64,000 bases of DNA from a virus (Duplodnaviria; Caudoviricetes), in IMG/VR virus record IMGVR_UViG_3300031555_003626, positions 1 to 64,000 of that record. One strand, given 5' to 3'. Each line of letters opens with the position of its first letter. The first letter of the stretch is position 1. Made by a program: the position numbers and the translations under genes. Below the pieces are notes generated by a model. It ran no database searches and was not told where the DNA came from. It saw nothing but the letters and a program-made list of their open reading frames with translations. Shown here one piece after another: positions 3,512-22,603 of the stretch.

Positions 3512-3979
3512 ATGAAAAGACCTTCAATAGATGAATATTATCTTAATATAGCTAAAGCTGTTTCAGGACGTTCTACCTGTTTACGAAAGCACTACGGGGC
3601 AGTTATTGTAAAAAATGGCGAAGTAGTTTCTACAGGCTTTAACGGACCGGTCAGAGGCGAATCACATTGCGGAAATTGTACTAAGGTTTCGTGTAATAAA
3701 GATATGGCCGAGTACTTGACTTGCCCAGCAGTTCATGCTGAAATGAACGCAATAATTTCTGCTAGTAGAAGTGAAATGCTTGACGCTGACCTTTATCTCG
3801 CCGGATTTGACGTAAAGTCAGGCGAGCCTGTTGAGTGCGAAGCTTGGCCTTGTGAGATTTGTTTAAGGCTTATTAAGAATGCCGGAATTTATCGTATTAT
3901 AAATAATAAAGGCGTTTGTTATATGCGCTCTGACGACAGTATTTTAAGACAACTTATAGAAAAGGAGAATAATTTATGA
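3512..3979 (+). CDS. dCMP deaminase
   Basis: RSTC, GFNG, HAEMNAI and PCEIC zinc-deaminase motifs. Confidence 0.92.
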   Translation: MKRPSIDEYYLNIAKAVSGRSTCLRKHYGAVIVKNGEVVSTGFNGPVRGESHCGNCTKVSCNKDMAEYLTCPAVHAEMNAIISASRSEMLDADLYLAGFDVKSGEPVECEAWPCEICLRLIKNAGIYRIINNKGVCYMRSDDSILRQLIEKENNL

Positions 3980-4491
3980 TTATCGGAATTTGCTGTGTAG
4001 ATAATAAGTGGGGACTGGGCAAGAAGAATGACCTTTTGTTTCACTTAAAAAAGGATATGCAGTTTTTTAGACAAACTACTGCTGATTCTATTGTGGTATG
4101 TGGGTATAATACCTTATTGAGCTTTCCTGGAGGAAAGCCCCTTAAGGGTCGCTCTACTATTTGTCTTTGTCCTGAGGAAGTAGAAAGAGATGACTGTTTC
4201 TGCGTTCATGACTTTGATGAGATGGTAAGACTTATTCAAGAACTTTCTAAGACTACAAATGTATATATTATTGGTGGTGGAATGCTTTACAATAGTATGG
4301 TTCCTTACTATGACGAAGTATATGTAAATAAAGTAGACGCGGACGGGAAAGCTGAAGTATTCTTCCCAAATCTTGACGAGCATCCTGACTATGAGCCTTA
4401 TCAGTTTCTTCCTGTTGTAGAAGATGAAGGCTATCAGACACGACTTGTAACATACAAAAGAAAAATTCCGCTTGAGCTGTTGGAGGGCTAA
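3976..4491 (+). CDS. folA: Dihydrofolate reductase
   Basis: GLGKKNDL, DMQFFRQTT, PLKGR, IIGGG and FFP motifs. Confidence 0.92.
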   Translation: MIIGICCVDNKWGLGKKNDLLFHLKKDMQFFRQTTADSIVVCGYNTLLSFPGGKPLKGRSTICLCPEEVERDDCFCVHDFDEMVRLIQELSKTTNVYIIGGGMLYNSMVPYYDEVYVNKVDADGKAEVFFPNLDEHPDYEPYQFLPVVEDEGYQTRLVTYKRKIPLELLEG

Positions 4492-4667
4492 TGAATAATC
4501 CTAAGTCAAAATGTGATTTTTGTCGCTACAAAACTTCAAGTGGCTGTATGGTATCGCCAAATTCTTATTATTGTAAAGAAGCAAATGATGAGTTTTATAG
4601 ATACCTACAGAGTAAGAAAACTGCTCAGCCGGCACAGAAATCTTTAAGATCATGGGATAAAAAATAA
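4491..4667 (+). CDS. Small Cys-rich protein (58 aa; not in the ORF track)
   Basis: TAATG coupling to DHFR, GGAGGG RBS; MNNPKSKCDFCRY...GC...YC. Confidence 0.6.
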   Translation: MNNPKSKCDFCRYKTSSGCMVSPNSYYCKEANDEFYRYLQSKKTAQPAQKSLRSWDKK

Positions 4668-4699
4668 GCTAAATTAAATAGATAAGAAAGTTTATTTTT

Positions 4700-4830
4700 G
4701 ATACCCATACTATACCTAAACGATACCTTAAAAGATACAAAAATGATACAATTAATAATAAATTAATTTTTATATATTTTTGGTTACCGCTTAGGATTTC
4801 TAGGCGGTAATTTTTTATTTGTATCAATTT
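4700..4830. repeat. Helically phased (G/T)ATAC repeats plus AT-rich tract; candidate replication origin
   Basis: GATAC/TATAC at 4700, 4711, 4722, 4734, 4745; A/T-only tract 4750-4781; inverted copy at 4821. Confidence 0.45.
4784..4816 (+). terminator. Rho-independent terminator
   Basis: TTACCGCTTAG / CTAGGCGGTAA stem followed by T6. Confidence 0.75.
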
Positions 4831-4886
4831 TTGAATAACTTTATTGTATTATATTTTGTATAAAATTTTAAAGGAGAGTTAAACTA

Positions 4887-5417
4887 ATGATTAAATTTCT
4901 TATTGAACCTGGTTATGACGTAAAGGCACCTGAGAGAGAAGCTGGAAACGCTGGCGTCGACTTCTACATTCCAAAGCACACGGATATCTTCGTAAAGGCG
5001 TTTAACGAGAAGAATACAGCAGCAAATGCTATTCTTGATATTAATAGCGATGGTGAGCCTATTATTAAGATTATGCCTCATGGCCGTGCTAATATTCCTT
5101 CCGGTGTGCGTAGCTTTATTCCTTCTAATGTAGCTCTTGAGGCGCAGAACAAGTCTGGCATTGCTACTAAGCATGGTCTTGTTTACGGCGCATCTGTAGT
5201 TGATGCATCATATAAAGGTATTATTCACATCTCACTTATTAATACTACGGGTAACACTATCGAGCTTCCTCTCGGCATGAAGGCAGTACAATTTTTGCCC
5301 AGACTCATCGATATTTCTCCTATTGAAGTGTATAATAATATGTCGCTTGATGAATTCTATAAAGATTTTGAATTTTCTAACCGAGGAGAAGGAGCTTTCG
5401 GTTCAACAGGCGTTTAA
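4887..5417 (+). CDS. dut: Trimeric dUTPase
   Basis: AGVDF, KSG, VVDASYKG and RGEGAFGSTG motifs. Confidence 0.92.
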   Translation: MIKFLIEPGYDVKAPEREAGNAGVDFYIPKHTDIFVKAFNEKNTAANAILDINSDGEPIIKIMPHGRANIPSGVRSFIPSNVALEAQNKSGIATKHGLVYGASVVDASYKGIIHISLINTTGNTIELPLGMKAVQFLPRLIDISPIEVYNNMSLDEFYKDFEFSNRGEGAFGSTGV

Positions 5418-5438
5418 TATTTTATTTTGGAGGAATTA

Positions 5439-6116
5439 ATGTCAACTTGTTTTTTGCGTGAAGTTTGTAACGGCAAAGATTGCCAAAAAGACTTCTGTCT
5501 CAGAAAATATAAAATGGACTCACTCTACTCAGCAGCTCTTATAACAGATAATCAGAAGAAGCACATCACTTTAAGAGTAGATGAAGATGGAACTGACCTT
5601 GAGCAGTTTAAGCAGCTCGCGGCCATTGAGAAAGATATTGTAAATTTTATTAATGACGGTAAAAATTTATATCTTCACTCAACTAACTGCGGAAATGGCA
5701 AGTCTTCTTGGAGTCTTAGACTTGCTCAGGCTTATTTTAATAAAATTTGGGCACGAACTGAAATAAAATGTAGAGTTTTATTTATTAGTGTTCCAAGATA
5801 CTTACTTGCAATTAAAGACAACATTTCAAATAGAAATGCTTATGCTGAGTATATTAAGGAAAACGTGCTTGAAGCAGACCTTGTGATTTTTGATGATCTA
5901 GCCGCAAAAATGGGGTCAGAATTTGAGCTGACCCATTTACTCAATATTATTGATAATAGAATTTCTTTAGGTAAGTCAAATATTTATACGTCTAATTTAA
6001 ACAGACAGCAACTTTATAATGCTCTCGGTGAAAGACTGACCAGCCGAGTGGCAAATATGTCTATTGATATTGAGCTATACGGAGCAGATAAAAGAGTTTT
6101 AACAAATGGAGGCTAA
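5439..6116 (+). CDS. DnaC/IstB-like helicase loader ATPase
   Basis: Walker A CGNGKS, Walker B IFDD, TSNL, RLTSR; directly upstream of the helicase. Confidence 0.8.
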   Translation: MSTCFLREVCNGKDCQKDFCLRKYKMDSLYSAALITDNQKKHITLRVDEDGTDLEQFKQLAAIEKDIVNFINDGKNLYLHSTNCGNGKSSWSLRLAQAYFNKIWARTEIKCRVLFISVPRYLLAIKDNISNRNAYAEYIKENVLEADLVIFDDLAAKMGSEFELTHLLNIIDNRISLGKSNIYTSNLNRQQLYNALGERLTSRVANMSIDIELYGADKRVLTNGG

Positions 6117-6119
6117 GCA

Positions 6120-7436
6120 ATGATTGCACAATTTCAGATTATTAATAAAGTACTCCAGAATAAGGATTACTCTTTTATTACCCTAAATAACCTTACTGCT
6201 GAGCACTTCTACGGCTATCAGGCAGAATATGAGTTTATTAAGGCTCACTACAATACTTATCATACTGTTCCTGATCGTCTTACTTTCGTTCAGCACTTCC
6301 CTGAGTTTGTTATTCAGGATGTAAACGAGCCTGATAATTATTTGATTGAGCAGCTCTATAACGACTATAATCAGAGCTATCTTGCTACTCGTCTTAATAA
6401 TCTTAAGAGACTTCTTGAGGCCGACGATACCGCTGGAGCAATGCAGTATTTCAAGGATTCTCTTGATAAGCTTCATACGGGCTCAGCACTTCAGTGCACT
6501 GATATTATGTCAGACACTTCAAGATATGACCGCTTCTTAGATATGACAGCTAATCAAGCAAAGTATTTTATTCCTACAGGTTTTCCTGAGCTTGATAAGA
6601 TTATTACAGGTATTGACCGTAGAAATGAGAATATGGTTATTGCAGCAAGAACCGGTGTAGGTAAGTCATGGTTACTGCTTACTATTGCGGCCGCTGTCGC
6701 CAAACAGGGTCTTACTGTTGGCATCTACTCAGGTGAGATGTCAGTAGACAAGGTAGGTTATCGTATTGATACCCTTTTGGGTAAGATTGATAATAAGAAA
6801 ATTTCTCGTGGCGATCTTTACTATAAAGATCACTATAAGAATTATTTGGATAATCTTAAGTGTTCAGGATATGGACCTATTAAGGTACTTACGCCAGCCG
6901 ATATCGCAGGACCTGCTACAGTAGATGCTCTTCAGGCATTTATTGAGAAAGAAAATCTTGATATTCTGTTTATTGACCAGTACTCTTTGCTTGAAGATAA
7001 TAGCAGAGCTAAAGTAGCTCATGAAAAGGTTGCTAATATCTCAAAGTCAATTAAGAATTTACAGGTACTTAAGCAGATTCCTATTATCGCAGTTTCTCAG
7101 ATGAATAGAACTAAGAATGAAGATAAGTCTCAGGATACCACTCAGATTGCACTTTCTGACCGGATTGGTCAAGATGCTACTGTTATTCTGATGGTAGATA
7201 AGCAGGATGCTGAAGACCCAAATCATCCTGGCGCTCATAAAGTTACTATTAACATTGTAAAGTCTCGTGATGGTGGCGATGGTAGAAAATTAGATTATCT
7301 TTGGAACTTTAACACAGGTGACTATCGTTATATCTCAAACGGTAATGATGGAGTCACTTCAGAAGAAGACTTTGAAGAGATTGAAAACAGCTACAGTGCA
7401 GATTATCCCGTAACTGATGGTGAGTGCCCGTTTTAA
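6120..7436 (+). CDS. dnaB: DnaB-like replicative helicase
   Basis: ARTGVGKS, SGEM, FIDQY, SQMNR, IGQDA and KSRDG motifs. Confidence 0.92.
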   Translation: MIAQFQIINKVLQNKDYSFITLNNLTAEHFYGYQAEYEFIKAHYNTYHTVPDRLTFVQHFPEFVIQDVNEPDNYLIEQLYNDYNQSYLATRLNNLKRLLEADDTAGAMQYFKDSLDKLHTGSALQCTDIMSDTSRYDRFLDMTANQAKYFIPTGFPELDKIITGIDRRNENMVIAARTGVGKSWLLLTIAAAVAKQGLTVGIYSGEMSVDKVGYRIDTLLGKIDNKKISRGDLYYKDHYKNYLDNLKCSGYGPIKVLTPADIAGPATVDALQAFIEKENLDILFIDQYSLLEDNSRAKVAHEKVANISKSIKNLQVLKQIPIIAVSQMNRTKNEDKSQDTTQIALSDRIGQDATVILMVDKQDAEDPNHPGAHKVTINIVKSRDGGDGRKLDYLWNFNTGDYRYISNGNDGVTSEEDFEEIENSYSADYPVTDGECPF

Positions 7437-7446
7437 GGAGTAGTAT

Positions 7447-8418
7447 ATGCCAGTACTTAGAGTTGATAATTATATAATTGAAACGCCTCTTTATGAGATA
7501 GTATGTCAACTCAAGATGGCGTTAACAAATGGTAAACTTAGAGAAATAAAGTCTTGGAGCGAAGGTGATGACAATATCGTTGTCACCTGCCCCAACAGAC
7601 ACCATAAAAATGGCCGTGAAGCACATGCGGCAATGAATATCTACGTAGGAACCAGCTCAAAGATTCCGTATGGATATTGTAAATGTTGGTCTTGTGACTT
7701 CCAGTGTAGCTTTGTTAAGTTTGTAGCGGAGTGCTTTGAGTGTTCAGAAGAGTTTGCTAAGAATTGGCTTAAAGATAAATATGGTAAAATATCTAGCTCA
7801 GGCATTACTTTGTGTGATGATATTGTTATAAAACAGAATAAAATGCCTGTCCGTATGCCACCGAGCTATTTAGACGCTTTTCAAGACTGGCACCCGTATT
7901 TAGCTCAAAGAAAACTTTCAAGAGAAGTCTGTGAGCTATTTAAAGTAAAGTATGACCCGCAAACAAGCCAGATCGTTTTTCCGTGCTTTGATGTTGCTGG
8001 AAAAATTATTATGGCTCCGAGAAGGTCTATCTATAATAAAACTTTCTATATTAATAAAGATCAAGATAAGCCTGTTTACTGTCTTGATTATATCATAAAA
8101 AATAATATTTCAACAGCAATGGTTTGTGAAGGCCCGATAGATGTACTTACTTGTTATACTTATGGGTATCCGGCAATCGGTACCTGGGGCAATCCCTCAC
8201 CTACACAAATAGATGCAATAAATAAATCACCTATTAAGGTTCTTTATATAGCTATGGATAATGATTGGGCAGGGCAAAGAATGGCTAACGTAATAAAAGC
8301 TGGCCTTGATCCACGAATTATTATAAAAAAAGTTCATTGGCTTCCAAATAAAAAAGACCCAAATGAACACTCTTATGAAGAATTTCAAAAAGTTATGAAT
8401 GAAGCTAAAAATTCATAA
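7447..8418 (+). CDS. DNA primase (zinc finger plus TOPRIM)
   Basis: CP..H...CWSC; EGPIDV; MDNDWAG; KDPNE. Confidence 0.9.
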   Translation: MPVLRVDNYIIETPLYEIVCQLKMALTNGKLREIKSWSEGDDNIVVTCPNRHHKNGREAHAAMNIYVGTSSKIPYGYCKCWSCDFQCSFVKFVAECFECSEEFAKNWLKDKYGKISSSGITLCDDIVIKQNKMPVRMPPSYLDAFQDWHPYLAQRKLSREVCELFKVKYDPQTSQIVFPCFDVAGKIIMAPRRSIYNKTFYINKDQDKPVYCLDYIIKNNISTAMVCEGPIDVLTCYTYGYPAIGTWGNPSPTQIDAINKSPIKVLYIAMDNDWAGQRMANVIKAGLDPRIIIKKVHWLPNKKDPNEHSYEEFQKVMNEAKNS

Positions 8419-8511
8419 ATCACATTGTATTATATAATATCGGCTGACATCCGATAAATATAAAAAATAAATAAAAAATACAAAAACAATACCAAAGGAG
8501 AAAATTCAAAA

Positions 8512-9414
8512 ATGTCAAATTCTACGTTTAATTTCGCACAGTATCAGCAGATCGCAGCTCAGGAGCAGACCCAGTCCGGCGACGGCACTAAGATTGGTTA
8601 TTTCAAGCTCAAAGATGATGGCGACATCGCTATCGCACGTATCAACCTCAGTTCTACCGATGAGTTTATGTTCGCAGCAGTTCATACTCTTCAGGTAGGT
8701 GGTAAGTGGATGAAGGTAAGTTGCCACAATCCTCTCGGCATGAACGCAGCTGGCTGTCCTCTTTGCTCTGCCCATCAGGCAAATCCTAAGGGCTCTATTA
8801 GCAAGTCCGCTAAGAAGATGTTCATTCCTATGCTCGTTTCTTACCGTGATCCTCAGTCTGCAACCGGTTATACACCTGTTACTCCCGTTATTTGGGATCG
8901 TCCTGCTCAGTTCTCTCGTGAGCTTGCTAATAAGCTTATGGTAGCAGGTAATCTTAAGGATGTTCTCGTTCTCATTACCCGTAACGGTAAGGCGGGTGAC
9001 ATGCAGACTACTTACTCTGTAGACGTTCTTCCTGCAACTCATCCCGTATTTAAGCCTGAGATGATTCCCGCTGACTTCAGTGCTTTCAATAACTTTAATA
9101 TCGCTAAGCACTCCTACTGGGAAAAGACTGTTGAGGAAATTAACACCTTCCTTGCTACCGGTCAGTTCCCTGAGGTTCCTAAGGCAAACAACCAGCAGAC
9201 TGTAAATAACGCAGCAACTTCTGCTAACACTTATGCAGCTCCTGCAACTCCTGCTTACACGGCACCTACTCAGACAGTTCCTACTCAGACAGTTCCTGCC
9301 TACACTGCTCCTGCTTATAATGCGGTTAATACCGCACCTGCAACAGCTCCCGCTATTAACACTGCTGGTTCCGAGCAGACTCCTGTGAGAAACTTCTCCG
9401 GCTTCAGCTTCTAA
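8512..9414 (+). CDS. Single-stranded DNA-binding protein (gp32-like)
   Basis: YFKLKDDGD, H...C...CPLC zinc site, low-complexity Ala/Thr/Pro tail; located between primase and polymerase; strong codon bias. Confidence 0.7.
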   Translation: MSNSTFNFAQYQQIAAQEQTQSGDGTKIGYFKLKDDGDIAIARINLSSTDEFMFAAVHTLQVGGKWMKVSCHNPLGMNAAGCPLCSAHQANPKGSISKSAKKMFIPMLVSYRDPQSATGYTPVTPVIWDRPAQFSRELANKLMVAGNLKDVLVLITRNGKAGDMQTTYSVDVLPATHPVFKPEMIPADFSAFNNFNIAKHSYWEKTVEEINTFLATGQFPEVPKANNQQTVNNAATSANTYAAPATPAYTAPTQTVPTQTVPAYTAPAYNAVNTAPATAPAINTAGSEQTPVRNFSGFSF

Positions 9415-9535
9415 TCTCAATTAGTTAAAACAAGATTAGGCTAATCTAAATTATACAAATTTAAAAGACGGGTCTAAAACGATCCGTCTTTTATTGTATT
9501 ATATTATATAAAATATATTTTAAGCGAGGTTATAC

Positions 9536-11404
9536 ATGAATAGTTTATTTGGTGGCTTTGATTTATCAGTAAGTGCAAAGCCAAAAGTATCACCTGAAGC
9601 TCTTATCAAAAAAGCAACCCCGACTGTTGCAGCAGAGCCTAAGAAGATAACTAATCAGAGTTTATTTGCTTCTGAAGAATTATCTGAATTTAATGTAGAA
9701 CTTAATAAACCTAAGCCTGAAGCCTTGGCTCGTAAGATTGCAAGTACTGAAGAAGGCGAAGTAGACGCTGCTAAGGTACTTAAGTCTAAGAAGGTATCTC
9801 TTGCTGAAAAGCTTGCCTTAATTAAAATTAAGGTCCTTGAAGTACTCGGTAAGCAGAGAAAGAACGTAGTTGTAATTAAGGATAAGGCAACTTTTGAAGA
9901 CTATGTTTCTAAGGCAATTGAGTTCGGTCGAATTGCAATAGACACTGAGACCAATAACTCTACCGACCCCATGACTTGTCAGCTAATGGGTCTTTGCTTG
10001 TATTATGAAGGCGGTAAGCAGGCTTATATTCCTATCAATCACGTTAACCCTGAAACTGGAGAACATCTTGATTGGCAGCTAACTGAAGAAGACTGTAGAG
10101 TACAGCTTCAGAGAATTAAGGATGCAGGCACTTTTGTAGTAATGCACAACGGTAAGTTCGATTATGAAGTTATTAAGTGCACTTGTGGTATTGAGATTGA
10201 GCCTGACTGGGATACTATGATAGGCGCTCATACTATCAATGAAAATGAGAAAATGAACCTCAAGTGGCAGTACATTAATAAGATTGACCCCACTCAGGAA
10301 AAGTATGATATCGAAAGCTTGTTCATCGTTCCGTATAAGTATGTAGAACCTGATATCTTTGCTCTCTACGCTGCGACCGACTCTATGATGACTGATAAAC
10401 TTTATGTATATCAGGTAGCTATTTTGGAAGCACCCGGCAACGAAAGACTTTACTGGATGTTTAAAACTATTGAGATGCCGATTGTTAAAGTTGCAGGCGA
10501 TATGGAGCTTATCGGTGTTTGTATTGACCAGGAATTTGGTGAAAGACTTCGTCTTAAGTTTAATCAGAATTTGGAAGATATTGACGTAAGAATTGAGCAA
10601 GAACTTGAGGCTCTCAAGCCTACAATTACAAAGTGGAAGAGCAGTAAGGATGCTACTGATAGAACTAAGCAGTTTGAGCCTAAGAAGACTACTCTCTCAC
10701 TTGCAAAGCTTGAAGAAAAGTATCCTTATGTAGACGAAAAGACTGGTAAAAGATACAAGGTTGGTAAGTCTAAAATTGAACAGCTTGCTGATCCTATCAA
10801 CCTTGCTTCGCCTACGCAGCTTGCTATACTATTTTATGATATTTTAAAGTGTCCTACGGTAAGCAAAAAATCGCCCAGAGGAACTGGAAAAGACGAGCTT
10901 GAGGCTTTAGCTGAGAGAACTGATATCGCGCTCTGTAAGCTGATTTTGGAGCGTCGTGGAGTGGTTAAACTTATCTCAACTTATATTGACGTTCTGCCTG
11001 CTCTTGCAAGACATTGGCCTGACGGACGTATTCGTTATAAGCTTAATTCTGTCGGTACTGATACTGGTCGTTTCTCTTCTGGTGGTGAATTTAAGTTCCT
11101 TGATGGTGATGAGCCTGTAGAAATTTCTGGATTTAACAGTCAGAATATTCCTTCTCGTGGAGACGGTAAAATCACTCGTCTTTTGTTTGAGGCTAAGAAA
11201 GAATTTGCTGATATTGAAGTGGATGTAGACCGTTTTACGGTACATGAAACAGCGGAGATCGAAACTGTTGACGGTTGGAAGTACGGAAAAGATATTGTAG
11301 CACTAAAAGATAGTGTACTTACGGACGATGGACCTGCTCTTATTGAAGTAGTTAGCTATGATGTTTTGAAGAAAGAATACGAATTTATTGTGAGGAAGTA
11401 TTAA
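9536..11404 (+). CDS. polA: Family A DNA polymerase, fragment 1 (3'-5' exonuclease, thumb, start of palm) plus Hint-like tail
   Basis: IAIDTET, HNGKFD, YAATD, NLASPTQL, TGRFSS, NSQNIP. Confidence 0.9.
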   Translation: MNSLFGGFDLSVSAKPKVSPEALIKKATPTVAAEPKKITNQSLFASEELSEFNVELNKPKPEALARKIASTEEGEVDAAKVLKSKKVSLAEKLALIKIKVLEVLGKQRKNVVVIKDKATFEDYVSKAIEFGRIAIDTETNNSTDPMTCQLMGLCLYYEGGKQAYIPINHVNPETGEHLDWQLTEEDCRVQLQRIKDAGTFVVMHNGKFDYEVIKCTCGIEIEPDWDTMIGAHTINENEKMNLKWQYINKIDPTQEKYDIESLFIVPYKYVEPDIFALYAATDSMMTDKLYVYQVAILEAPGNERLYWMFKTIEMPIVKVAGDMELIGVCIDQEFGERLRLKFNQNLEDIDVRIEQELEALKPTITKWKSSKDATDRTKQFEPKKTTLSLAKLEEKYPYVDEKTGKRYKVGKSKIEQLADPINLASPTQLAILFYDILKCPTVSKKSPRGTGKDELEALAERTDIALCKLILERRGVVKLISTYIDVLPALARHWPDGRIRYKLNSVGTDTGRFSSGGEFKFLDGDEPVEISGFNSQNIPSRGDGKITRLLFEAKKEFADIEVDVDRFTVHETAEIETVDGWKYGKDIVALKDSVLTDDGPALIEVVSYDVLKKEYEFIVRKY

Positions 11405-11835
11405 TGAAAGTAAGAACAAGAACTCAATATAAACTTGTCGGATCAGACTACTCTGCTCAAGAACCCCGTATAACAACGTATCTTTCTGGAGATCCAAACA
11501 TGCGACAGGCTTATCTCGAAGGCAAAGATTTATACTGCGTTATCGCATCAAATATTTATAATAATAAGTACGAAGAGAACCTGGAAAATTTTCCAGAAGG
11601 CCATGTACTTGAGCTTGACGGTAAAAAGACTGTGGCTGGAAATGATAAAAGCTATAAAAAGCAGGTTTCAGATAAGCTAGAAGTTCCTTATTATTATTTG
11701 GTACCAACTATTTCTGGAACAAAAGCGGCAGCTGAAATTCAGGCTGGTGATAGCATTATTGCTGATGAAGGTGCTTTTACTGTTGGTACTGTTGCGACTA
11801 TAAATGATATAACAACAATTTATTTTGTTGATTAA
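11404..11835 (+). CDS. polA: Family A DNA polymerase, fragment 2 (motif A) plus Hint-like tail
   Basis: LVGSDYSAQEPR (motif A), GKDLY; TAATG-coupled to fragment 1. Confidence 0.88.
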   Translation: MKVRTRTQYKLVGSDYSAQEPRITTYLSGDPNMRQAYLEGKDLYCVIASNIYNNKYEENLENFPEGHVLELDGKKTVAGNDKSYKKQVSDKLEVPYYYLVPTISGTKAAAEIQAGDSIIADEGAFTVGTVATINDITTIYFVD

Positions 11836-11895
11836 ATTATTAGCTAAATTAAATAGGATACATTCCGTAAATAACAGCGAGGAGCAATTTAATTT

Positions 11896-12915
11896 ATGCT
11901 ATATGTAATTTATTTAATCACAAATTTAATTAACAACAAAAAGTATGTTGGTCAGACTCAGCAAGGTCGCGAAGAAAAACGTTGGCAGGAGCATTTTGTT
12001 TACACAGTAAATGACAATAAGCTTCTTCATAATGCTATTAGAAAGTATGGCCCTGAAAATTTTGAAGTTAAGACTATAGAAACAGACATACCTGAAGAGC
12101 TAATTGACGAACGAGAATGCTATTATATTAAGTATTATAACACTTTCTATCTAAATAAACAAGGCTATAATATGACTGAAGGCGGCCAAGGGATTCACGG
12201 GTATATTCATACAGAAGAAACTAAGCAACAGATTAAAGAAAGTAATTTAGCTACTTGGCAAAAAATTAAAGAAGAAGAGCCTGAACGCTACTCTCGACTT
12301 TGTTTAAATAGAAGTCTTGCTAACAAAGGAAAGCCCAAATCTGCTGAGCATCGCGCTAAAATGAGTGTGATTGCTTCAGCACGTATTGGAGAGAAAAATT
12401 CTTTTTACGGAAAGCACTTTTCGGAAGAGTCAAAAGAAAAACAACGTGAAAACTGGAGAACTAAGTGCGAACCTATTAAAGCTTTTTCCGCACAAACTGG
12501 CCAGCTGTATAAAAAGTATTATACTGCGATGGATGCTGTTCGAGACTTAAATCTGCAAAGTAGCGCAAATAGCCGTATTATAACAATATGTAAAGAGCAA
12601 AAGGGTGTTGGTTATGGATTTATTTGGCGATATGAAAAAGATTGTCCGGATGATTTTATTTTGGTAGCTAAGCATGAGCCACTATTAAGGCAGGACACTG
12701 GAATTAAAAAGTCCGCTGTAGCAAAAAAAGTTTTTCAATATGATAGTCAAAACAACTTAATAGCAGAGTTTGAATCTGCGGCTGAGGCAGCACGTAAGCT
12801 TCAACCAGACCAAGCTAAGCAACGAAACTTAGCGAAAAAAATAAATTGTACTTGCCGAGGACAGTATAAAACTTGCCACGGTTATGTTTGGAGCTACATG
12901 AAATTAGACAGTTAA
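11896..12915 (+). mobile_element. Free-standing GIY-YIG homing endonuclease (NUMOD3/NUMOD1-like repeats) inside the polymerase locus
   Basis: VIYLITN..KKYVGQT, ERE, GYNMTEGG, HTEETKQ, GEKNSFYGKH; has its own promoter and RBS. Confidence 0.88.
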
Positions 12916-12960
12916 TATCGTATTTTATAATAATATAATTATTGAGGAGGTGATGCCTAC

Positions 12961-13920
12961 ATGAGTACTATTAAAACAATTGAAATAAAGTCCCCACCAA
13001 AGCTTCTTAATAAAGAAGGCAAGGAAAGACGTTCGGTTGCGAAGATGGTGCTTTTGTGACGAAACTTGGCACTTACGTATGGAATGGGGCCAAGCACGTT
13101 GGCAAAACGTATTAATAAAACAAATCAGGAAGCACAAGAGATTTTCGATAACTTCTTTAAGAGCTTTCCGAAGGTAGAAGAGCTTATTAATAGCTCGAAA
13201 GAATTTTTAAGAACTCACGGTTATGTAGAAGACTGGGCAGGTAGAAGACGTCATTTGACAGATTACTTCCTTAATCCTTATGAAGCTTCTTACATGGATC
13301 CTGATAAGCTTATTGCTCAGACTTTTAATCCTATTCTTGGTTGTGAGAGCAGACCTCTTGTAGATGATAAGCTCACTTCTTGGGTAAATAGAGCTAAGAC
13401 AACTAAGAATAATAAAGAATTTGATGAGCTTGCTAAGTTGGCAGCAAAAGAAGGAATTATTCTATCTGCAAATACCGGTAGAATCGCTCAGGCAGAGAGA
13501 CAGTGCCTTAATGCAAGAATTCAGGGATCTGCAGCTTCACTTACTAAGCTGGCTATGATCCAGATTCATAATAGTCAGGAACTTAAAGATATTGATGCAA
13601 AACTTGTTATGACTATTCATGATGAAGTTATGCTCGAATGCCCTGCTTTGTATGCAGACCAGGCATCCGAGATTCTTCCAAGAATTATGATTGATGCTGC
13701 TGCACCTTATATCGATGTTCCTATGAAATGTGACCCTGCTATTGAGTCTCGTTGGTATACTTCGGAGTACGCCGTAGCTGTTCAGTCTGAGTTTAAGAAG
13801 CTTACTGATAAAGGACTTGAAAGAGATGAAGCATTTAAGAAGCTTTATGCTAAGCACCCCGAGCTTCCTGAAGAAGCTATTTACAAAACTATTACTGAAG
13901 GCATTGACCTTGAATTTTAA
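12961..13920 (+). CDS. polA: Family A DNA polymerase, fragment 3 (motifs B and C), interrupted by an in-frame TGA at 13057-13059
   Basis: GAGGAGGTG RBS, then MSTIK...KERRSVAKMVLL*RNL-ALTYGMG in one frame; NARIQGSAA; TIHDEV. Confidence 0.85.
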
Positions 13921-13945
13921 TATACGAAGGAGAAATTTTTAAGTT

Positions 13946-14572
13946 TTGGTAACACCCGGATTTTTAGAGAATGGTATTGATTTTGACCCGTTGATCGACT
14001 ATTATGTGGCTAATAATTACTATGTTGAAGTGGTAAACCAATCAGAAGTTAAAGTAGCAACAGCTTTAACAGAAAGTGTTATTAATAATAGCCACGGATA
14101 TCAGGAGGAAGAGAGCTCTGCAAAGAAGCCTAACGTTAGGCTTCGAATGATTTTTAACTCTATGTTATGGGAAAAGATCGTAAAAAGAGTCAGTAGTTTA
14201 ATTAGGAAAAGCAGCGCTGTATGGCTAGTTGGTGGTTCTTATGAAAAAGGCACGGACTTCCAATCAACTGACGGCGTTGATATTGAAGCAAAAGTATATA
14301 AAGATATAAACAGCATGAATTTTTATGCTAAAAAAGGCTCTGTAGACTATACTGTATTTCATGGTGCCGAATATGTACTTTGTTATTTGATTAATAGTCA
14401 TGAAAATAAACACGTATATTGGCTTAAAAAAACTAATGGAATATATCATATATATAATGATGAAGGATTAGAGTACTTAACAAGCAAGCGCCTGCCACAG
14501 GTGATTCCAGTTTGTTACTGTACGATAAGGCCTGATAAAATTATTTTCGGTAAAAGTACTTATTGTACTTAA
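13946..14572 (+). CDS. Hypothetical protein, possible PD-(D/E)xK nuclease fold
   Basis: TDF.....DIEAK pattern; TTG start with long RBS spacing. Confidence 0.45.
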   Translation: MVTPGFLENGIDFDPLIDYYVANNYYVEVVNQSEVKVATALTESVINNSHGYQEEESSAKKPNVRLRMIFNSMLWEKIVKRVSSLIRKSSAVWLVGGSYEKGTDFQSTDGVDIEAKVYKDINSMNFYAKKGSVDYTVFHGAEYVLCYLINSHENKHVYWLKKTNGIYHIYNDEGLEYLTSKRLPQVIPVCYCTIRPDKIIFGKSTYCT

Positions 14573-14615
14573 TCTGCTAAATTATAATGATTAATATTTA
14601 ATATTGGAGATTATT

Positions 14616-15953
14616 ATGATTAAAACAGAATTTATGGAGCTTTATGAAGAGCTTAGTGAGATAAATGGAGATTCAATATCTATAGAAGGCGTTTCTTCAC
14701 CAGAAGAGCTAATGGACTGGATGAATGAAAACATTACTTATGAACTTGTAGATGATGAGTATTCTAACAGTAACGGAGTTCCTACTAAAACAGCAGAAGA
14801 AGTTTTAAAAACTGGCACTGGACATTGCGCTGAACAGTCCTATCTCGAAAAAGAAGTTCTTGATGATCTTGGTTACGAGACTTTCTTAGTAATGGTTAAA
14901 GAGAATAATTCTAAAAAAGAATACGGTGCGGAAGGTTCTGCTCATGTGTTTTTAGTTTATAAAGAAGGTAAAAATTACTGCTGGTTTGAGCATTCAATGC
15001 AGCATGCCAGAGGTATTCATAAATACACTTCTTTAGACGCGCTTCTACAGGATGTTGCTAATCAGTGGTGGCGCTATGATGAAAATTCTGATATTCTTGA
15101 AGTAAGAATGATGGATAAAGTTATCACAGGCGTTGACAACTGGGGACTTGCTAAAGAGTGCTATAAATTACCTGTAGAATATACTTTTGATATTTCTAAT
15201 AATATTATGGAGTCTGATGTTCCACTTGAAGAGTCTGTAAACAGCAACTCTCAAATTGATTATCTTCCAGTTTCAGACGTAGAGCTTTTTAAAGAGTATG
15301 CCGATGATATTTTGGACGGATATGGAAATATGTCTGATGCTGATATTAAGAGCTCTATTAAAGAAATTCATTTTGAAGGAAAGCTTGCTGGCTATATCGG
15401 TTTTTCTGAGTATGAGGAAAACGGAAGCAAGTGTCTCGGTATTGGTAATTTTATGATTATCGAGCGTGGTAAAGGCCTTGGCTCAGCAGTAATTCAAAAT
15501 ATTGTAGAAAAGTATAAAAATCAATATGATCTTATTTATTGCTTTGTAGATGCTAAAAATGACGGCGCTATCCGACTTTACAAAAAGCTTGGAAAAGTTT
15601 ATGATGAAGACGGTCCAAATGACAACGGTGAGTACTACGTAACTTTCTGGGACAACGGTAAATGGGATCTTGATGAGGAATTTGACCCACCGTATAATGA
15701 ACAACAAGTAAGAAATACTTATGGCGAGGAAACTTATCAGCGATTAATAAAAGACCCTGCTCATCTTTGGAGAATGAGAACAGGTATTGAGCTAATTCAT
15801 AGAGAGCCATCAAAAAAGGAGCTTGAAAGAATTTGGGCTAACTGGCAGCTTATGACGATTAATCAAAAACGTAAATCAGATGAAAAATCTAAAGAGTTGT
15901 TTGGCAAAACTAATGCTGAGCATTATGCAGAGCTTATCAAAACTTATAATTAA
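14616..15953 (+). CDS. Multidomain protein: transglutaminase-like, GNAT acetyltransferase, unknown C-terminal domain
   Basis: GHCAEQS...HVFLVY...WFE; RGKGLGS...NDGAIRLYKKLG; ATG 14616 after GGAG. Confidence 0.7.
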   Translation: MIKTEFMELYEELSEINGDSISIEGVSSPEELMDWMNENITYELVDDEYSNSNGVPTKTAEEVLKTGTGHCAEQSYLEKEVLDDLGYETFLVMVKENNSKKEYGAEGSAHVFLVYKEGKNYCWFEHSMQHARGIHKYTSLDALLQDVANQWWRYDENSDILEVRMMDKVITGVDNWGLAKECYKLPVEYTFDISNNIMESDVPLEESVNSNSQIDYLPVSDVELFKEYADDILDGYGNMSDADIKSSIKEIHFEGKLAGYIGFSEYEENGSKCLGIGNFMIIERGKGLGSAVIQNIVEKYKNQYDLIYCFVDAKNDGAIRLYKKLGKVYDEDGPNDNGEYYVTFWDNGKWDLDEEFDPPYNEQQVRNTYGEETYQRLIKDPAHLWRMRTGIELIHREPSKKELERIWANWQLMTINQKRKSDEKSKELFGKTNAEHYAELIKTYN

Positions 15954-18234: not shown

Positions 18235-19107
18235 GTGGCAAAAATTTATAAAATAACTAATACTAAAAATGGTAAGTTTTATATCGGAATGACTGTTGAT
18301 TCACTTGAGCAGCGATTAAAAGAGCACATACAAGAATGTCGCAGATATGAACGCGGTACAGTAAAATATAAGTCTAGACTATATAATGCAATGATAGCTG
18401 ACGGTATACAGTACTTTATTATTGAGTTAGTAGAAGATAATGTACCGAGAGAACTTGTAGGAGAGCGGGAGCAGTATTATATTAAATTACTAAGGTCTCA
18501 AGATGACTCTATTGGTTATAATATCAGTAAAGGTGGCCGAGCAGGTCCACCGCAAGGTAAACATACTGAGCAGGCTAAATTGATGCAGTCAATCCATAAT
18601 AAGAATAAAATTTGGTGTTATGACCCAAATACATTGGAGTATCGAAAAGTACTTCCTGAGGATGTACCCGAAGGTTTTATTATCGGTATGCTTGAGAGCC
18701 ATAAAGCCAAATTAAAAGGTGAAAATAACGGTATGTATGGAAAAGTAGGTTCAAACCGAGGAAAAACTTTGTCAGAAGAGACAAAAAAGAGATCCAGTGA
18801 AACTAAAAAAGCTAGAAATAAAAATAGAAATTGGGCGTGGTATACAAATGGCTCAGAAGAACACTGGATTAATTTAAACGAAAAACAGCCCCCAGAAGGA
18901 TTTTATCCAGGGCGAATTCCGAATAAAAACGCACATCGAGTTTCTATTGAAATAGAAGATTTAATTGAGCATAAAACGTATCAATTTGATGCTTACAGCT
19001 TCGCACAAGAAGCCTTAAAACTATCTTATATGACTATTGTAAAGTCTATAAAAACAGGATGTATTATCAAGAATAGATATAAATGTAAGCTAAAAACTGA
19101 TAAATAA
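18235..19107 (+). mobile_element. Free-standing GIY-YIG homing endonuclease upstream of recA
   Basis: KIYKITN..KFYIGMT, ERE, GYNISKGG, GENNGMYGK, LSEETKK. Confidence 0.85.
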
Positions 19108-21523: not shown

Positions 21524-22603
21524 ATGACTTTATTTGAAGAATTTAAGCTCTATGAAAATATGTGGGAACCACTTACTGAGGCGGTATATCTTGAAGCATT
21601 GCCTACAAAACCTGGTATTTACTGTATTATTTTTAATGCATATGATAGTGAAGGAAAAGCTGTACAAAGAAAATATATTGGATTGGCTAAAGATATTCGA
21701 GCCAGAATACAAGAACATTTAAAAGCAGCGCGTCCAGACGGACGTGATTATGTGGTGTATAATGCTATGAGAAAGCATCCATATAAAGTAATTGTACTCG
21801 AAACTCTTGATATATATAATATTACAGCACTAGGGAAGCTCGAAAAGAAATGGATTCAAGATTTACACACATTTATAAATGATAACGCTGAGAATGATAA
21901 TATTAAAACTGTAAATTTTAATGGTCGAAATTATGATCTTACTTGTTCAGGGCCAGGTTATAATATGACTTTTGGTGGGGAAGGCGCCCCATGCTACCCG
22001 CCTGAGATTATTGATGAAATTATAGCACTATATAAGACAAATGAGTATCAGCACGTAAAAACTTATAAAGAGTTTAAAGAAAAATACAAAGCGCATCCGC
22101 AGTATAGTAAACTCAGCTATGATACGCTTAGATTATTTATAGAGGCCAATGATTTGCCTTGGTATAATGAACAAGAGAAAAAAACAGTAGTATATGCTAA
22201 TATTGTGAAACAAGGTGAAAAACTTGAAAAAGACGGGCATAAAAGGTCTTGTTTAATTGCAGTAAAAAATACTACCGACTCAAAGTACCGAATAGTCTGT
22301 GATTCTCAAGCTCAAGCAGATGCTCTTGTTGATTTTATTTGGAAACGCTTTAAAGCAGATTATGAGACTGAATTTAAAACTTATCTAGCAACTCGTACAA
22401 AGCGAGAGCGAGAAAATTCAGGAGCAATGCGCATCAAGTGGATTATTGAACAAGGTCTTTATGATAAGTATCTAGACCTCAGTCAGTACGACATTAGTGC
22501 TATTAAAAGTACTAAAAAGAGTCTTGGTGGTGAAGGGCAGACTGGTATAAAAATTGCTACTGGTCGAGGCAGTCTTTGTAGTATCGCTTACAATGCTGAG
22601 TAA
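21524..22603 (+). CDS. GIY-YIG nuclease with N-terminal FEEFKLYEN leader
   Basis: PGIYCI, KYIGLA, RIQEH, LEKKWI, GYNMTFGG. Confidence 0.8.
   Translation: MTLFEEFKLYENMWEPLTEAVYLEALPTKPGIYCIIFNAYDSEGKAVQRKYIGLAKDIRARIQEHLKAARPDGRDYVVYNAMRKHPYKVIVLETLDIYNITALGKLEKKWIQDLHTFINDNAENDNIKTVNFNGRNYDLTCSGPGYNMTFGGEGAPCYPPEIIDEIIALYKTNEYQHVKTYKEFKEKYKAHPQYSKLSYDTLRLFIEANDLPWYNEQEKKTVVYANIVKQGEKLEKDGHKRSCLIAVKNTTDSKYRIVCDSQAQADALVDFIWKRFKADYETEFKTYLATRTKRERENSGAMRIKWIIEQGLYDKYLDLSQYDISAIKSTKKSLGGEGQTGIKIATGRGSLCSIAYNAE

Follow-up and report, generated by a model that had tools for sequence, protein, structure and literature searches.

Stop-led coding gaps in a split phage DNA polymerase gene: strong comparative support for a proposed new form of programmed translational bypassing

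The DNA polymerase gene (polA) of an uncultured gut phage is interrupted inside polymerase motif B by a 12-nt coding gap that begins with an in-frame stop codon, and we consider it highly probable that ribosomes pass this gap by programmed bypassing. Among relatives, 26 distinct gaps were found at two sites in the same gene: motif B has 14 of them and motif A the other 12. A matched-codon hop, which a preliminary description of the locus had proposed, would be the sole single mechanism that fits all 26, and the comparison among them strongly supports the gap as a new form of programmed translational bypassing.

The window, by which we mean the whole 64,000-nt stretch analyzed, opens a record of 233 kb that has approximately 218 kb of unique sequence and a terminal overlap (about 223300-233329 versus 4846-14836). 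The overlapping copies are identical from primase to polA; over their whole length they align at 95.8%, and some offset or discrepancy lies within or ahead of the helicase gene. A second copy of the gap, at genome position 231454, falls in this overlap and is not independent. Genes of helicase-like, primase, RecA and clamp-loader type accompany polA in a replication module. Also inserted there is an ORF (449 aa; 14604-15953) that encodes transglutaminase-like and GNAT acetyltransferase domains and varies among relatives.

polA occupies positions 9536-13920, all on the plus strand, and is split into ORFs of 622 aa and 143 aa, a GIY-YIG gene, and ORFs of 32 aa and 283 aa. Piece 1 (622 aa, 9536..11404; Pfam DNA_pol_A_exo1 and DNA_pol_A) comprises the 3'-5' exonuclease and the start of the polymerase domain, followed by an intein-like (Hint-fold) tail of approximately 55 aa. 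Piece 2 (143 aa, 11404..11835) carries motif A and, from approximately 11641, a C-terminal extension added by the cassette. Next comes a free-standing putative homing endonuclease of 339 aa with GIY-YIG, NUMOD3 and NUMOD1 domains by Pfam (11896..12915). Piece 3 has a strong RBS (12944..12952), kept in all split relatives inspected, and an ATG at 12961 that opens a 32-codon pre-gap ORF (12961..13056) encoding a 14-aa cassette-added N-terminal extension and then motif B as far as the Leu codon used for take-off, TTG 13054-13056. The 12-nt gap (13057..13068) consists of a UGA-C stop, 6 nt and the landing TTG (13066-13068), after which a resume frame of 283 codons (13069..13920) supplies the motif B Tyr, motif C and the C-terminus. 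A promoter-like site at 12912-12939 does not rise above chance (7 found versus 4.2 +/- 2.2).

Re-reading the sequence bore out every coordinate given for the RBS, the start codon and the single-frame string TTG-TGA-CGA-AAC-TTG, which lies between the 32-codon ORF and the remainder of motif B. The motif B Lys codon (13042-13044), the TGA (13057-13059) and the Tyr codon (13078-13080) share one frame throughout. With 13057-13068 taken out, the translation reads K-M-V-L-L-A-L-T-Y. The claim that this removal restores a Tyr eight residues after the Lys agrees with all 114 uninterrupted homologues, each of which has exactly 7 residues between K and Y (MVLLALT in 107), and the proposed motif B register matches that of the solved Bacillus Pol I. 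An alignment of homologues, suggested at the same time, yielded the relatives that lack the 12 nt: L001 and L002 are continuous and gap-free, and L031 is split, with the start of its third piece as in the window, but gap-free. The predicted bypass product of 315 aa has the length of the continuous piece in L031, and the 32 pre-gap residues are 94% identical to the first 32 of that protein. No cultured close relative was found, the best match having 39-41% identity.

An assembly error is ruled out, because the same 12-nt gap and gene pattern recur in other samples and in diverged relatives. Positions 12944-13110 are identical in five further assemblies (L011-L015), the 143/339/32/278-aa gene pattern was found again in JGI and ENA samples, and the identical gap occurs in relatives whose downstream dS is 0.8-0.95.

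The gene downstream of the gap is under purifying selection: dN/dS of the downstream frame is 0.03-0.11 at dS 0.4-3 among diverged relatives, including other gap carriers, and 280-codon downstream frames are intact in 30 distinct sequences. Pseudogenes are the usual meaning of premature stops, and the polymerase could be dead and the host enzyme used in its place. The chance that this is so is close to negligible, given such constraint among gap-bearing alleles, the conservation of the pre-gap peptide, and a full replication module with no other polymerase. In the complete genome polA is the only DNA polymerase gene found; a weak DNA_pol3_alpha match at 85682 was below the cut-off.

The 26 gaps range from 5 to 57 nt and fall into frames 0, +1 and +2 in 12, 7 and 7 cases, with five take-off residues: Ser, Ala and Glu in motif A, and Leu and Thr in motif B. 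Motif B gaps follow either Leu (K+4) or Thr (K+7) and measure 9, 10, 11, 12, 13, 35 or 37 nt; examples, written with a slash after the take-off codon, are ACT/TAG CGT ACT (L005), CTT/TAG GGA AGG CTC (L023), ACC/TAA AGTGA ACT (L018) and TTG/TAG CAGCT TTG (L020). Motif A gaps measure 5, 6, 7, 8, 11, 12 or 57 nt and are minimal in TCT/TAG TCT (L067) and GAA/TAG C GAA (L020). They were located in polA piece 2 of L007 (5736-5747 region), L017, L020, L023-25, L036, L040, L041, L045, L054-56, L060, L063 and L066-69. The motif A site lies behind the first polA split. Every relative seen retains that split, often in a nuclease-free form with TAATG coupling, and motif A gaps occur only where a separate RBS serves piece 2. 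Motif A of the window has no gap; several genomes have gaps at both motifs. In every allele, and in all three frames, removal of the gap restores the canonical motif.

An in-frame stop comes first in 26 of 26 gaps (TAG 13, TGA 11, TAA 2), mostly in TGA-C or TAG-C context, and UGA-C is a leaky stop context. Among this genome's own genes 81% end in TAA and 1 of 188 in TGA-C. Readthrough of the UGA, or reassignment of the stop, would lengthen the O-helix by four residues; the window gap is in frame, its stop context is leaky, and some database proteins show TAG alleles as Gln. We nevertheless regard this explanation as extremely improbable. It fails for 14 of the 26 gaps, whose lengths are not divisible by three. 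Each of the three stop codons occurs among the alleles, the phage genome encodes no suppressor tRNA, and none of the 114 intact homologues tolerates an insertion. Coding density is barely changed by treating TAG or TGA as sense (0.825 and 0.824, versus 0.805). A Gln at the stop position appears in P0016, P0048, P0123, P0219 and others, apparently from code-15 gene calls; the Gln stands exactly where DNA-level alleles have TAG, which indicates gene-calling artefacts, the DNA-level confirmation coming from the same motifs in sequences other than those protein records. A stop-recoded phage (code 15 or 4) was rejected, as there is no genome-wide sense TAG or TGA and no suppressor tRNA. Three out-of-frame gaps contain a stop in the resume frame, and a simple frameshift is therefore excluded.

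The landing codon is synonymous with the take-off codon in 20 of 26 alleles and changes along with it, a count reached in 0 of 200,000 permutations, bearing in mind that the alleles are related and not fully independent. At least two of three bases are common to take-off and landing in 25 of 26 (chance about 0.13 each). The two codons are identical in only 10 of 26, most differences being at the wobble base, and thus most pairs are wobble matches, not exact repeats. In 19 of the 20 synonymous alleles no cognate triplet lies between the stop and the landing codon; the one exception is a triplet inside a -20 kcal/mol hairpin of the 57-nt gap. Six alleles land on a non-synonymous codon (e.g., TTG to GTG, TCG or TTC). 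As a caveat for the hop, an insertion that duplicated one codon would likewise yield matched codons.

These landing codons also bear on termination followed by reinitiation, in which the 32-aa peptide would be released on its own and would assemble non-covalently with a second protein begun at TTG 13066. TTG 13066 is a valid start with a weak GTGA 6 nt upstream, polA is already made in pieces, and a TTG, GTG or ATG stands in the resume frame in 8 of 26 alleles. The other 18 have no start codon there, and the Thr-site alleles have their nearest downstream ATG beyond the motif B Tyr-Gly, a pair that the protein would then lack. The break would also fall in the middle of the O-helix, and the match of non-start landing codons to their take-off codons would be left unaccounted for. 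We therefore judge reinitiation very unlikely as the general explanation. Since its gap is in frame and its landing TTG can serve as a start, the window allele taken alone is compatible with reinitiation and with readthrough, and either could be a source of side products from it.

Removal of the gap at the RNA level, by excision of a micro-intron or by jumping of the RNA polymerase, has in our estimation just as small a chance of being right. The gaps lie between short direct repeats, and that of the window is enclosed by an outer stem, but the repeats are mostly imperfect at the wobble position, and lengths of 5-13 nt are far below ribozyme size. No Rfam intron match was found at 9400-14200, and the gap ends have no conserved bases (10 different end combinations). 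No RNA-level process predicts a leading stop in 26 of 26 gaps or matching at the amino-acid level. A group I or II intron was rejected for want of an Rfam core and of conserved gap ends.

Pattern scans of IMG/VR and GTDB for further motif B gaps added only chance matches. The motif A pattern outside polymerases gave seven chance matches, none with a leading stop, and a genome-wide scan for sites combining a short ORF, a stop and matched codons found no other convincing site.

Programmed bypassing by a matched-codon hop is the preferred reading. Stop hops without assistance are in general inefficient. The long gaps (35, 37 and 57 nt) have T4-like stem-loops of -17 to -21 kcal/mol with the take-off codon in the 5' arm; a stable take-off stem-loop is present in these and in some short alleles, and absent in the window allele. 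The inner hairpin with the stop in its loop, put forward in the preliminary description, is not stable (MFE 0; best +0.5 kcal/mol), and across alleles stop-enclosing hairpins show only weak enrichment (combined p 0.04-0.07); as a general signal such a hairpin is weak. The proposed outer stem (13047-52/13068-73) does fold here (-7.5 kcal/mol, z -3.1) but is weakened in most same-gap alleles, where GTA replaces GTG and breaks one pair. The Lys/Arg-rich nascent peptide, also singled out earlier, turns out to be ordinary motif B sequence, and its 94% identity in the gap-free L031 lends no support to a bypass-specific nascent peptide. The GTGA 6 nt upstream of the landing TTG is made of take-off and stop codon bases and is not general across alleles; no conserved mini-SD is evident in the short alleles. 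The phage encodes a cluster of 13 tRNA genes (genome 190268-196863) that includes a Leu(CAA) tRNA cognate to the take-off codon.

Gap and endonuclease move together. The GIY-YIG cassette is missing at this site in unsplit relatives (L001-L004, L007-L010). L001 and L002, the nearest by downstream sequence, have a continuous 383-aa second piece with neither nuclease nor gap, from which it follows that the nuclease arrived together with the piece-2 C-terminal tail, the new RBS and the 14-aa piece-3 N-terminal tail. Near the cassette the window resembles cassette-bearing L042 and L046 (2-3 of 51 nt differ before the gap) and farther downstream it resembles cassette-free L001 and L002, a mosaic. 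On the polA tree the gap types are scattered, and they agree for the most part with the nuclease tree; L054 and L058, which hardly differ downstream, have 10- and 37-nt gaps. The mosaic and the tracking of gap types with the nuclease are as homing with co-conversion predicts.

Gaps outlast loss of the nuclease in relatives. The split polA is kept in L013 (3493-4512) and L019 (2142-2681), though the endonuclease gene is broken. Split sites of other relatives hold ORFs (L029:3522-4487, L041:2951-3733, L045:315-1283, L036:663-2288) of different types (HTH-rich putative nuclease, divergent GIY-YIG, LAGLIDADG-like, DUF7487), which suggests that the nuclease can be replaced by other types. L020, a genome with both gaps, has a canonical intein with a LAGLIDADG domain (635 aa; 3553-5460) in its post-gap piece. 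In the window two further GIY-YIG-domain genes are present at 18235-19107, free-standing before an intact recA, and at 21524-22603; no gap site was found adjoining either.

Structure models of the two tails match inteins with middling scores: the piece-1 tail (11189-11404) at Z 6.2, rmsd 1.8 and 54 aligned residues, and the piece-2 tail (11641-11835) at Z 6.1, rmsd 1.5 and 53 aligned, with inteins in its top seven rows. The two tails are homologous (hhalign E 2.7e-5), and the ESM Atlas gave no match for the tail. Neither the catalytic Cys/Ser nor the C-terminal His-Asn followed by Cys/Ser/Thr was seen in the tail alignments. An active split intein was rejected: the Hint fold is modelled and the splicing residues are absent, from which we infer non-covalent assembly. 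The modelled Hint-fold tails are probably a non-splicing assembly module. A predicted complex between the piece-2 tail and the 32-aa peptide scores 0.49, against 0.02 for the best control, and lends this support too weak to rely on; its runs agree in at least 84% of contacts and partner pLDDT is at least 54. Of 80 solved pairs 58 reach the mark for such scores, as do 2 of 110 mismatched ones; those reaching it at 0.60 or below are 7 of the 80 solved pairs and both mismatches.

In the mechanism that we propose, a homing-endonuclease cassette split the sole DNA polymerase gene of the phage, bringing a Hint-like C-terminal tail, the GIY-YIG gene, a new RBS, an N-terminal tail, a recoded start of motif B and the short gap. 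Ribosomes starting at 12961 would reach UUG with the weak UGA-C stop in the A site; peptidyl-tRNA(Leu) would detach, the mRNA would slide 12 nt and the tRNA would re-pair at the next UUG. Decoding would then pick up at GCA to give a 315-aa subunit with an intact O-helix and the junction peptide MVLLALTYGMGPSTLAK, while the remaining ribosomes would release the 32-aa peptide. The three polymerase pieces would assemble non-covalently via their splicing-dead intein-like tails. By analogy with T4 MobA, the gap would interrupt the nuclease recognition site within codons too conserved to mutate, so that self-immunity would come at no cost in protein sequence, and the gap thus probably shields the endonuclease target. 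We lean slightly towards a broader proposition: that in gut phages natural minimal hops (5-13 nt, down to codon-stop-codon), with no dedicated RNA structure or peptide signal, have repeatedly arisen at two catalytic motifs of one essential polymerase, with two hops per enzyme in some genomes, as a general and evolvable form of endonuclease self-immunity.

To our knowledge, natural programmed bypassing is confined to very few systems: T4 gene 60 and its relatives, the yeast mitochondrial byps and the Hau3 terminase. A literature search with most subscription papers outside its reach found no report of bypassing in phage polA. The series described here offers 26 natural variants of 5-57 nt in one gene with gap-free controls, and the signals needed for the hop are therefore directly testable; the same holds for the route by which a minimal gap might lengthen into one of T4 type. 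On this reading, the annotation of such phage polymerases as fragments or stop-recoded genes is wrong.

The closest parallel is the T4 gene 39-mobA-gene 60 cassette (Manning & Atkins, bioRxiv 10.1101/2022.08.31.505936). There too an essential gene is divided by an endonuclease that brings C- and N-terminal extensions, translation of the second ORF begins at a start of its own, a stop-first gap lies in conserved codons with matched or wobble take-off and landing, the gap outlasts nuclease loss, and the nuclease family is swappable. The T4 cassette involves topoisomerase II and the HNH endonuclease MobA, in contrast to family A DNA polymerase and GIY-YIG here. Its bypass is 50 nt and the shortest gap reported is 20 nt (bioRxiv 10.1101/2022.08.31.505936), compared with mostly 5-13 nt here, and take-off is at Gly or Asp compared with Leu, Thr, Ser, Ala or Glu. 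Unlike the T4 cassette, polA has two independent sites in one gene and intein-like tails, and its short alleles, some excepted, have no stable take-off stem-loop, nor is a conserved mini-SD evident in them. The marks of MobA descent, Gly46/Asp45 of the topoisomerase II large subunit and MobA-type tails, are absent. The polA cassette is an analogue of the T4 MobA element, non-homologous to it and not a member of its family.

No natural hopping over an in-frame stop was known to a 2016 review (Atkins et al., PMC5009743). The synthetic E. coli stop hops it describes include a case of 9 nt decoded as one residue, to which the TCT-TAG-TCT of L067 corresponds exactly; those hops are constructs, whereas the ones here are apparently natural and required for an essential gene. 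In the accessible text on the Streptomyces phage Hau3 terminase, a 10-nt bypass with two sites in the gene is described, and mass spectrometry in E. coli, using a UAA variant, detected the junction peptide (Antonov et al. 2023, PMC10732093). A short gap in an essential phage gene and two sites per gene are thus common to both systems; the Hau3 bypass is triggered by a rare UUA sense codon and considered regulatory, and that text describes no endonuclease link (PMC10732093). The arrangement also resembles fractured genes with split inteins (PMC2677866), in which a free-standing endonuclease lies between split parts of a replication gene and tails reunite the pieces, and the Aeh1 nrdA gene split by MobE, with its free-standing endonuclease and added tails (as described in bioRxiv 10.1101/2022.08.31.505936); assembly here is probably non-covalent, as in Aeh1. 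As far as the accessible portions of these sources go, neither the fractured split-intein genes nor Aeh1 nrdA are described as having a bypass, and the polA tails differ from those of the split inteins in being Hint-like without splicing residues.
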